From assembly GCF_055900595.2 (NCBI RefSeq), contig NZ_CM148325.1: a DNA stretch of 64,000 nt. One strand, 5' to 3'. This document shows positions 62,451 to 64,000 of this stretch, piece by piece. The position numbers and the translations under genes were made by a program. The notes beneath the pieces are model-generated. The model did no database searches. It had not been told where the DNA came from and was given only the letters and a program-made list of their open reading frames with translations. Every line of letters starts with the position of its first letter. Within the stretch, counting starts at the first letter, position 1.

Positions 62451-63659
62451 GTGAAACGACTACAGGCATTTAAATTCCAGTTAAGACCAGGTGATCAACA
62501 GGAGTGTGAAATGAGGCGCTTCGCAGGCGCATGTCGTTTCGTTTTCAATCGTGCTCTGGCGCTTCAGAATGAGAATCATGAGGCCGGTAATAAATACATC
62601 CCTTACGGGAAAATGGCTTCCTGGCTGGTTGAGTGGAAAAATGCCACTGAAACGCAATGGCTTAAAGATTCTCCCTCACAGCCATTGCAACAGTCACTGA
62701 AAGACCTTGAGCGGGCTTACAAAAACTTCTTCCGGAAGCGGGCTGCTTTTCCCCGATTCAAAAAGCGGGGACAGAATGATGCATTCCGCTACCCGCAGGG
62801 CGTTAAGCTCGATCAGGAAAACAGCCGTATTTTTCTGCCGAAACTGGGCTGGATGCGTTACCGCAATAGCCGTCAGGTCACGGGTGTTGTGAAAAATGTC
62901 ACTGTCAGCCAGTCCTGCGGTAAGTGGTACATCAGTATTCAGACAGAAAGTGAAGTATCCACTCCGGTTCACCCTTCAGCATCAATGGTCGGGCTGGATG
63001 CTGGCGTGGCTAAACTCGCCACGCTGTCAGATGGCACAGTCTTTGAGCCTGTAAACAGTTTTCAGAAAAACCAGAAGACGCTGGCGAGACTTCAGCGACA
63101 GTTAAGCCGCAAGGTCAAATTCAGCAACAACTGGCAGAAGCAGAAACGCAAAATACAGCGACTGCATTCCCGTATCGCAAATATCCGCAGGGACTACCTT
63201 CACAAAGTCACAACGACCGTCAGCAAAAACCACGCAATGATAGTCATTGAGGATTTGAAGGTCAGCAACATGTCAAAGTCAGCAGCGGGTACGGTCAGCC
63301 AGCCGGGGCGCAATGTCCGGGCAAAATCAGGTTTAAACCGTTCGATACTGGATCAGGGCTGGTATGAAATGCGCCGCCAGCTTGAGTACAAGCAGCTCTG
63401 GCGTGGCGGTCAGGTGCTTGCTGTTCCGCCAGCGTACACAAGCCAGCGTTGCGCGTGCTGTGGTCATACAGCGAAAGAAAATCGCCTGTCACAAAGTCAA
63501 TTCAGATGCCAGGTATGTGGATATACAGCGAACGCCGATGTAAACGGCGCTCGTAACATTTTAGCGGCGGGGCACGCCGTTCTTGCCTGTGGAGAGATGG
63601 TGCAGTCAGGCCGCCCGTTGAAGCAGGAACCCACCGAAATGATTCAGGCGACAGCCTGA
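62451..63659 (+). CDS. tnpB: TnpB (IS605 OrfB family, RuvC-like putative RNA-guided nuclease)
   Basis: 402-aa ORF with N-terminal OrfB-type region ([13 protein letters not shown]), RuvC-I GLDAGV, RuvC-II IEDLKV, zinc finger CACCGH...CQVCG and Ruv[15 protein letters not shown]; the start could instead be the ATG at 62511. Confidence 0.85.
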
Positions 63660-63698
63660 ACGTAGCAGGGATCCTCGTCCTTCAGGGCGTGGAGGATG

Positions 63699-64000
63699 TC
63701 AACAAACAGGTTGAATTAACTCCGCGCCCTGGTTTTTGACATTACCTACCGCGCGCGATACCGGGTGCCAGGTGAACTGGTTTGCTGGCACACAGCCGTT
63801 GGTAGCAATTTCTGATGCTTCTTTACCGCCAATCTCTTGCCGCATCCATTCCCGCGCAGCTTCTGGCGACAGTACCAGCGGGCGGCGGTCATGAATATCT
63901 ACCAGACCCTGGTCTGCTGCTGCAGTGACAATTAAAAATCCTTCGGCTTCGTCACCGCGCTCAAACGGTGTGCTACCTATCGCGGCCATAAAAACAGGTT
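63699..64000 (-). CDS. yedK: SOS-response-associated peptidase YedK, C-terminal part (gene continues beyond window end)
   Basis: Minus-strand translation ...MAAIGSTPFERGDEAEGFLIVTAAADQGLVDIHDRRPLVLSPEAAREWMRQEIGG...NVKNQGAELIQPVC matches the SRAP family C-terminus; stop at 63699-63701. Confidence 0.75.
   Translation of the reverse strand, partial: PVFMAAIGSTPFERGDEAEGFLIVTAAADQGLVDIHDRRPLVLSPEAAREWMRQEIGGKEASEIATNGCVPANQFTWHPVSRAVGNVKNQGAELIQPVC

Follow-up and report, generated by a model that had tools for sequence, protein, structure and literature searches.

In many Escherichia coli genomes the gene yedK meets the right end of an insertion sequence head-on, and the locus raises the question of which of the two owns the stop codon of yedK, what the insertion has done to the YedK protein, and whether an RNA made by the element could reach into the gene. 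The window analysed here, a 64,000-nucleotide stretch of contig NZ_CM148325.1 (GCF_055900595.2), is E. coli DNA that matches strain 203740 at 100%; between 61850 and 63760 the two are identical (100%), and RefSeq annotates the same tnpA, tnpB and yedK genes there. Within 61000-64000 a Y1 transposase gene on the minus strand and tnpB/insQ on the plus strand are divergent, and the 3' end of yedK lies on the minus strand downstream of tnpB, forming with it a convergent pair. The yedK product is an SOS-linked DNA-repair protein of the SRAP family that processes abasic sites. The minus-strand open reading frame at 63699..63989, which is open past the window end, is the 3' part of yedK and places the last 96 codons in the window, and the full gene of the identical strain begins MCGRF, with the N-terminal Cys2 present, its residues 1-222 aligning with PDB 6KCQ/2ICU (E 1.6e-153). 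The main features of the locus are as follows.

61951..61954, plus strand: TTAT target, the left cleavage motif and predicted TnpB TAM (six independent insertions, the empty site, PMC9956272, PMC12781874)
61955..63702, plus strand: IS609 copy (IS200/IS605 family), 1748 bp, placed from the empty and occupied sites and other copies; no target-site duplication and no terminal inverted repeats
62012..62443, minus strand: tnpA (Y1 transposase) pseudogene; Pfam Y1_Tnp on both open reading frame fragments, E 5.7e-26; 'internal stop' in PGAP
62451..63659, plus strand: tnpB/insQ, 402 aa, an intact RNA-guided endonuclease gene; Pfam HTH_OrfB_IS605 (PF12323), OrfB_IS605 (PF01385) and Cas12f1-like_TNB (PF07282)
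63699..64000, minus strand: 3' part of yedK, 302 nt; SRAP (Pfam); the gene runs off the window and is annotated yedK in the identical RefSeq record

Identity and ends of the element

Over its whole length the element shares 97.8-99.2% nucleotide identity with IS609 copies at other loci, and its assignment to IS609 is judged from the O157:H7 copy (97.8% identity), whose transposase RefSeq names 'IS609 family'. Its ends were fixed from an empty-site strain, from six independent IS609 insertions and from relatives with TnpB identity down to 49%. The copies at K-12 ydcO, in a TetR gene, in a DUF3251 gene, at yeaR-yeaQ and at yfaY-yfaV match the window only from 61950/61951 to 63702-63704, and both junctions of the six independent insertions follow one pattern, in which (C/T)TTAT is followed by CCGGTGCG ... 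GGAGGATGTCAA and then by unrelated flank, with divergence from the next base on. TTAT lies directly 5' of the left end in all six. In the IS-free strain (L001) the same flanks are joined as ...ctccaggcttat/caaacaggttgaat..., with the junction ggcttat/caaacagg and no target duplication, and the occupied site of the window reads ggcttat/CCGGTGCG...GGATGTCAA/caaacagg. Subtracting one from the other leaves an ambiguity of one base, the shared c, which is solved by the right flanks of the other copies: these start with t, c, t, g and g, and the element therefore occupies 61955-63702. Among TnpB-bearing IS605 elements, TTAT is the commonest left and TCAA the commonest right cleavage motif (PMC9956272). 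The copy thus has the make-up of an IS200/IS605 element, namely a Y1 tnpA gene (now a pseudogene), tnpB, imperfect subterminal hairpins, and a target of 4-5 nt without duplication.

The relatives used for alignment come from plasmids of Salmonella, Providencia, Klebsiella, Shigella, Aeromonas and Pseudoalteromonas, with TnpB identity from 93% down to 49%. Of the ten sequences aligned, nine terminate in GGAGGATGTCAA, with complete divergence after it, and the tenth, an E. coli P1-like plasmid copy, ends in GGAGGATGTCAC. Three terminal structures lie at the ends of the element.

61971..61990, plus strand: left-end subterminal hairpin CCCCGTCC-TTCA-GGGCAGGG; its core GTCCTTCAGGGC is in common with the right-end hairpin
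63672..63693, plus strand: right-end subterminal hairpin TCCTCGTCC-TTCA-GGGCGTGGA; helix 6, in which two pairs have compensatory changes across relatives
63694..63702, plus strand: right-end tail GGATGTCAA, 9 nt, whose last four bases are the right cleavage motif TCAA (63699-63702); alignment of 10 relatives

Within the tail GGATGTCA is kept in all ten relatives and the final A in nine, and the sequence 3' of the tail diverges. Folded as DNA by themselves, the two ends give z-scores of -0.8 to 0.0, short of significance, and support for the hairpins therefore rests on conservation and covariation. The window copy departs from the others in both stems: in the left hairpin the G of other copies is an A at 61987, which leaves a C.A mismatch, and in the right hairpin the A of most copies is a T at 63675, which leaves a T.T mismatch. 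Each of these substitutions (61987 G>A, 63675 A>T) opens a mismatch in a stem that TnpA would bind.

The stop codon of yedK

A sequence-only reading of this DNA had placed the yedK stop at 63699-63701, inside or flush with a presumed right end of the insertion sequence, and there it is found, as TGA on the minus strand (tca on the plus strand), made up of the complement of bases 1-3 of the terminal TCAA of an element that ends at 63702. It is not inside the right-end hairpin, where that reading had put it: the hairpin covers 63672-63693, and the stop lies 6 nt past it, in the tail. Two codons account for the junction.

63699..63701, minus strand: yedK stop TGA, from the IS609 end, complementary to the first three bases of the terminal TCAA
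63702..63704, minus strand: new Cys223 codon TGT, with TG from the native stop and T as the complement of the last base of IS609

The empty site further shows that the element went into the native stop codon itself. Without the element, the coding strand of yedK ends att caa cct gtt TGA taa, giving ...IQPV followed by a stop (222 aa, CDS 669 nt) and then a second stop, and the crystallised K-12 YedK likewise ends QPV, with V222 as the last residue of the PDB chains. The occupied allele reads gtt tgT TGA cat cc..., giving ...IQPVC followed by a stop (223 aa, CDS 672 nt). On the opposite strand, the TTAT target pairs with the A of the native TGA and with the TAA next to it in the tandem stop TGATAA, and it is thereby confirmed that IS609 entered the native yedK stop between G and A (TG/A). 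The comparison of C-termini with IS-free strains, which the sequence-only reading had proposed as a check, thus finds that both the stop and the end of the protein differ. That reading had also suggested that the insertion replaced the native C-terminus or the 3' untranslated region. The second half of this stands, for the native 3' untranslated region has been pushed away by the 1748 bp of IS609 and the region that follows yedK is now IS sequence; the first half does not, as the YedK C-terminus is shown to have gained one Cys and to be otherwise unchanged. The new TGA is made wholly of element sequence. Whichever of the three frames enters the right end from outside, it meets a stop, be it at once, after 6 codons or after 18 codons, and any convergent gene running into it would therefore close quickly; because one frame in three meets the terminal TGA at once on entering the element, the placement of the stop is by itself unremarkable.

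The explanation that joins these observations, and in which as a whole we have high confidence, is that IS609 sits in the yedK stop codon and that its TCAA terminus supplies the replacement, with a guide and homing role of TnpB as a further, conjectural part. Moved by single-strand 'peel and paste', IS609 inserted 3' of TTAT, which is the ATAA of the yedK tandem stop TGATAA on the opposite strand, so that the cut fell between bases 2 and 3 of TGA. The element end ...GTCAA, read on the yedK strand, then turned the interrupted codon into TG+T TGA, that is, a new Cys codon and an in-frame stop taken from the terminal TCA.

Three other accounts of the junction have to be set against this one. Were the stop native and the element merely abutting it, the coding sequence and C-terminus would be unaltered, which would suit a protein that is 99% unchanged and a stop that is still TGA; yet the empty site reads gtt TGA taa with TTAT/CA at the junction, a tgt codon has been added in the occupied allele, the occupied TGA falls within bases common to every IS609 copy, and the coding sequences measure 669 and 672 nt, so that this account is refuted and keeps a negligible probability. 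The opposite notion, that much of the YedK C-terminus was replaced or cut off by the insertion, draws on the IS-derived stop codon and fares no better: it is refuted by residues 1-222, which match the crystallised K-12 protein over their full length and leave only Cys223 extra, and we give it an equally minute chance. It is slightly less far-fetched, though still very improbable, that the IS-bearing allele is ancestral in E. coli and that the 'empty' alleles arose by precise, scarless TnpA-mediated excision. Excision of IS200/IS605 elements is seamless (PMC8612924), and excised and never-occupied sites therefore look alike; against this, the empty form outnumbers the occupied one at least threefold and is spread over varied backgrounds (K-12, O157:H7 and avian strains), empty strains include ones with unrelated sequence further downstream, and the element is multi-copy and mobile. 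The anatomy of the junction is in any case the same under either polarity, insertion or excision.

As to how common the two alleles are, the junction between right end and yedK was found in at least 667 of 5426 complete E. coli genomes and the empty yedK site, searched with a 52-nt probe, in at least 2090, among them K-12 derivatives and O157:H7, both counts being lower bounds as megablast needs long exact words.

TnpB and a predicted guide RNA across the junction

The preferred reading, in which IS609 interrupted and replaced the yedK stop, has a second part that concerns what the element may still be able to do. Its transposase gene is dead. Codon 96 of tnpA has changed from TTA to TGA (62156-62158), upstream of the C-terminal region with the catalytic tyrosine, and the normal TAG stop has become CAG (62012-62014), with no indel relative to the intact O157:H7 tnpA. 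A frameshift, which was considered, is ruled out by the same alignment, which shows a nonsense substitution and a lost normal stop. With its tnpA dead the yedK copy cannot excise by itself, and the hairpin mismatches and the premature stop together make excision, and hence a need for homing, doubtful. The L96>TGA lesion is common to the yedK and ydcO copies, which lie at different loci, and is absent from copies at four other sites; CAG in place of the normal stop occurs in every copy compared except the O157:H7 one. A lesion common to different sites points to mobilisation in trans or to gene conversion between copies.

The state of tnpB is quite another. The protein matches the ISDra2 TnpB structures 8BF8/8EXA (E 7.8e-55), its residues D183, E267 and D363 align with the catalytic residues of a solved TnpB-family chain (9yyg), and the CxxC...CxxC zinc finger is present (C334.../C353...). 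The gene is intact in all seven copies compared, with dN/dS of 0.15-0.43 against the six others. IS609 copies thus outlast the decay of their tnpA with a tnpB that is still intact and constrained.

In ISDra2 the TnpB-bound RNA consists of the tnpB 3' end, the right end and about 16 nt of flank that serve as guide, the TAM is the transposon target, and the donor joint left by excision has been proposed as the natural substrate (PMC8612924). By the same arrangement two features are predicted here.

63533..63702, plus strand: predicted omega-RNA (reRNA) scaffold, overlapping the tnpB 3' end and the right end; 5' limit approximate
63703..63718, plus strand: predicted 16-nt guide CAAACAGGTTGAATTA, by analogy with ISDra2 (PMC8612924), antisense to yedK codons 218-223

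In the alignment of 10 relatives (TnpB identity to 49%), conservation over the last ~170 nt of the element goes beyond coding need, and the blocks GCCTGTGGAG and GAAGCAGGAAC are invariant. An RNAalifold consensus has 37 pairs, six of them with compensatory changes, and 97% of its cells are paired as compared with 41-55% when the partners are slid. None of 500 shuffles reaches the observed covariation score, a result drawn from only 10 sequences, in a region that is partly coding and whose terminal hairpin is also a DNA signal for TnpA. A scan of 61000-64000 against Rfam gave sub-threshold matches only, to HgcC (19.3 bits against a gathering threshold of 50), sot0042 (16.3 against 88) and RAGATH-18 (25.4 against 44.9), which sit on the terminal hairpin and on the CCUGUGGAG...GAAGCAGGAA stem, inside the predicted scaffold; at these scores the likeness to the three families is one of resemblance only, short of membership. 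The first two, HgcC and sot0042, come from archaea, where the RNAs overlap IS605/IS1341 orfB genes at their 3' ends.

That guide RNA transcription would run antisense into yedK had been part of the sequence-only reading, and the idea is consistent with known TnpB architecture and with the covarying scaffold. [quoted passage not shown] The predicted guide starts within the new Cys codon, and the bases 5' of its sequence are TTAT in IS-free genomes and TCAA at the occupied locus, so that the element would not target itself. Following the accepted model, TnpB with such an RNA would cut the IS-free allele (TTAT + CAAACAGGTTGAATTA) and spare the occupied locus, where TCAA replaces the TAM, and retention of the element would thereby be favoured. 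TTAT was used as TAM in the design of targets for IS609 TnpB (PMC12781874), a study in which a variant 94.3% identical to IS609 was purified and only SfaTnpB was taken forward; no published activity result for IS609 TnpB was retrieved from the literature on IS609/insQ with TnpB.

A bolder extension, which we regard as unlikely, is that the TnpB-omega-RNA of the yedK copy is active and cuts incoming IS-free yedK alleles in mixed populations, and that the antisense RNA might also dampen YedK. If true, the copy would be an allele-specific drive or a recombination barrier in spite of its dead transposase, with its target, TTAT + CAAACAGGTTGAATTA, in at least 2090 genomes. One natural deletion bears on selection for the RNA. 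At the yedK locus of strain 600 (window about 63588-63688), 100 bp have been lost between the short repeats GCCTGTGGAG and GCGTGGAGG, which takes most of the predicted scaffold and the TnpB C-terminus, while yedK still ends in QPVC and a stop. The loss of the scaffold without consequence for yedK argues against strong selection on the RNA at this locus. A different element at the yedK site of strain 600 was considered and ruled out, the insertion being the same IS609 with a 100-bp internal deletion.

A related proposal is that the junction is exploited for regulation, with tnpB read-through or omega-RNA acting as an antisense regulator of yedK, or with yedK transcription repressing tnpB. Transcription is convergent and complementarity across the junction is complete. 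Consensus terminator scans found no terminator-like site on the minus strand after yedK before about 63085 in the occupied allele, none after yedK in the native allele, and none on the plus strand after the right end, and convergent read-through in both directions across the junction is plausible. Such scans are, however, weak evidence, the scaffold deletion of strain 600 is tolerated, and the insertion is absent from most E. coli, so that yedK needs no such control; regulation of this kind seems improbable, about as much so as an active drive, if clearly less so than an ancestral insertion.

Other insertion sites and known systems

A search of the literature on IS609/insQ, TnpB and E. coli omega RNA found no description of the yedK/IS609 junction. 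Its closest counterpart is the K-12 copy of IS609, a tnpA pseudogene and insQ beside ydcO, which has the same divergent tnpA and tnpB, the same ends, the TTAT target and the TCAA terminus. At ydcO, too, the stop of a convergent gene would have been split and the TGA of the element is donated: the annotated stop of ydcO is the TCA of the IS609 terminus (L003, a K-12-type strain, 2049-2054), and the native end cga TA/A taa would have become cga taT TGA, with one Tyr probably added, as judged from the sequence. The two copies differ in their site and in the single mismatch that each subterminal hairpin of the yedK copy has, and they have L96>TGA in common. On an IncY P1-like plasmid, pM71903 (L009, 1949-1952), a third convergent gene, for a hypothetical protein by darA, has its annotated end at the same TCA; the last base of the IS609-like right end there is C instead of A (GGATGTCAC). 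At the left end, a small DUF1869 gene at the yeaR-yeaQ insertion (L006, 259-447) is annotated as ending 42 nt into IS609, and the left end would therefore also donate a stop codon to a host open reading frame.

The idea that IS609 aims at the stop codons of convergent genes (yedK, ydcO and possibly the gene of the P1-like plasmid) was considered and rejected, as the other sites differ and the numbers are small: two insertions lie in mid-frame, in the TetR and DUF3251 genes, and two are intergenic or at the end of a co-directional gene. On a simpler reading, the insertions in stop codons are a by-product of the target, TTAT being the complement of ATAA, which contains TAA, and of selection against disruptive insertions.

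With the TnpB-reRNA systems of ISDra2 and IS608 the element has in common the TnpB fold family, a structured RNA region over the tnpB 3' end and right end, the predicted position of the guide in the flank, and a TAM that is the transposon target (PMC8612924). It is unlike them in its TAM, predicted to be TTAT rather than TTGAT or TTAC, in its tnpA and tnpB genes, which are divergent rather than overlapping and co-directional, and in its inactive tnpA. As at other stops donated by insertion sequences, the host reading frame runs into the element and ends at the first in-frame stop of the element's end; unlike them, the yedK case has the smallest possible change, a single added residue, because the stop codon itself was the point of entry and a stop on the complementary strand lies within the last four bases of the element. 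All the parts are of well-described kinds (target and end rules of IS200/IS605 elements, the origin of TnpB guides, IS-donated stops), and the case brings in no new principle.

The locus is annotated in hundreds of RefSeq genomes, and the anatomy described here explains why YedK has two lengths in RefSeq (222 and 223 aa) and where K-12 YdcO ends. It also sets the exact ends, the target and TAM, and the predicted guide for E. coli IS609 copies, and it makes the occupied and empty yedK sites natural paired alleles for the study of TnpB homing or of omega-RNA antisense effects on a convergent host gene.

The surroundings of the insertion vary as well. K-12-type genomes part from the window strain 16 nt beyond the yedK stop, and the 3' flank of yedK is therefore the boundary of a variable island. 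Between fliE, further left, and yedK the window strain has emrE, ybcL and ybcM (about 59200-61040), which in K-12 are cargo genes of the DLP12 prophage; K-12 itself has yedL-yedN-yedM-intG at the position between fliE and yedK. An AT-rich spacer separates ybcM from the left end of IS609 and includes a 20-nt unit (tcgttgttattaaatctagt) in three tandem copies (61330-61389).
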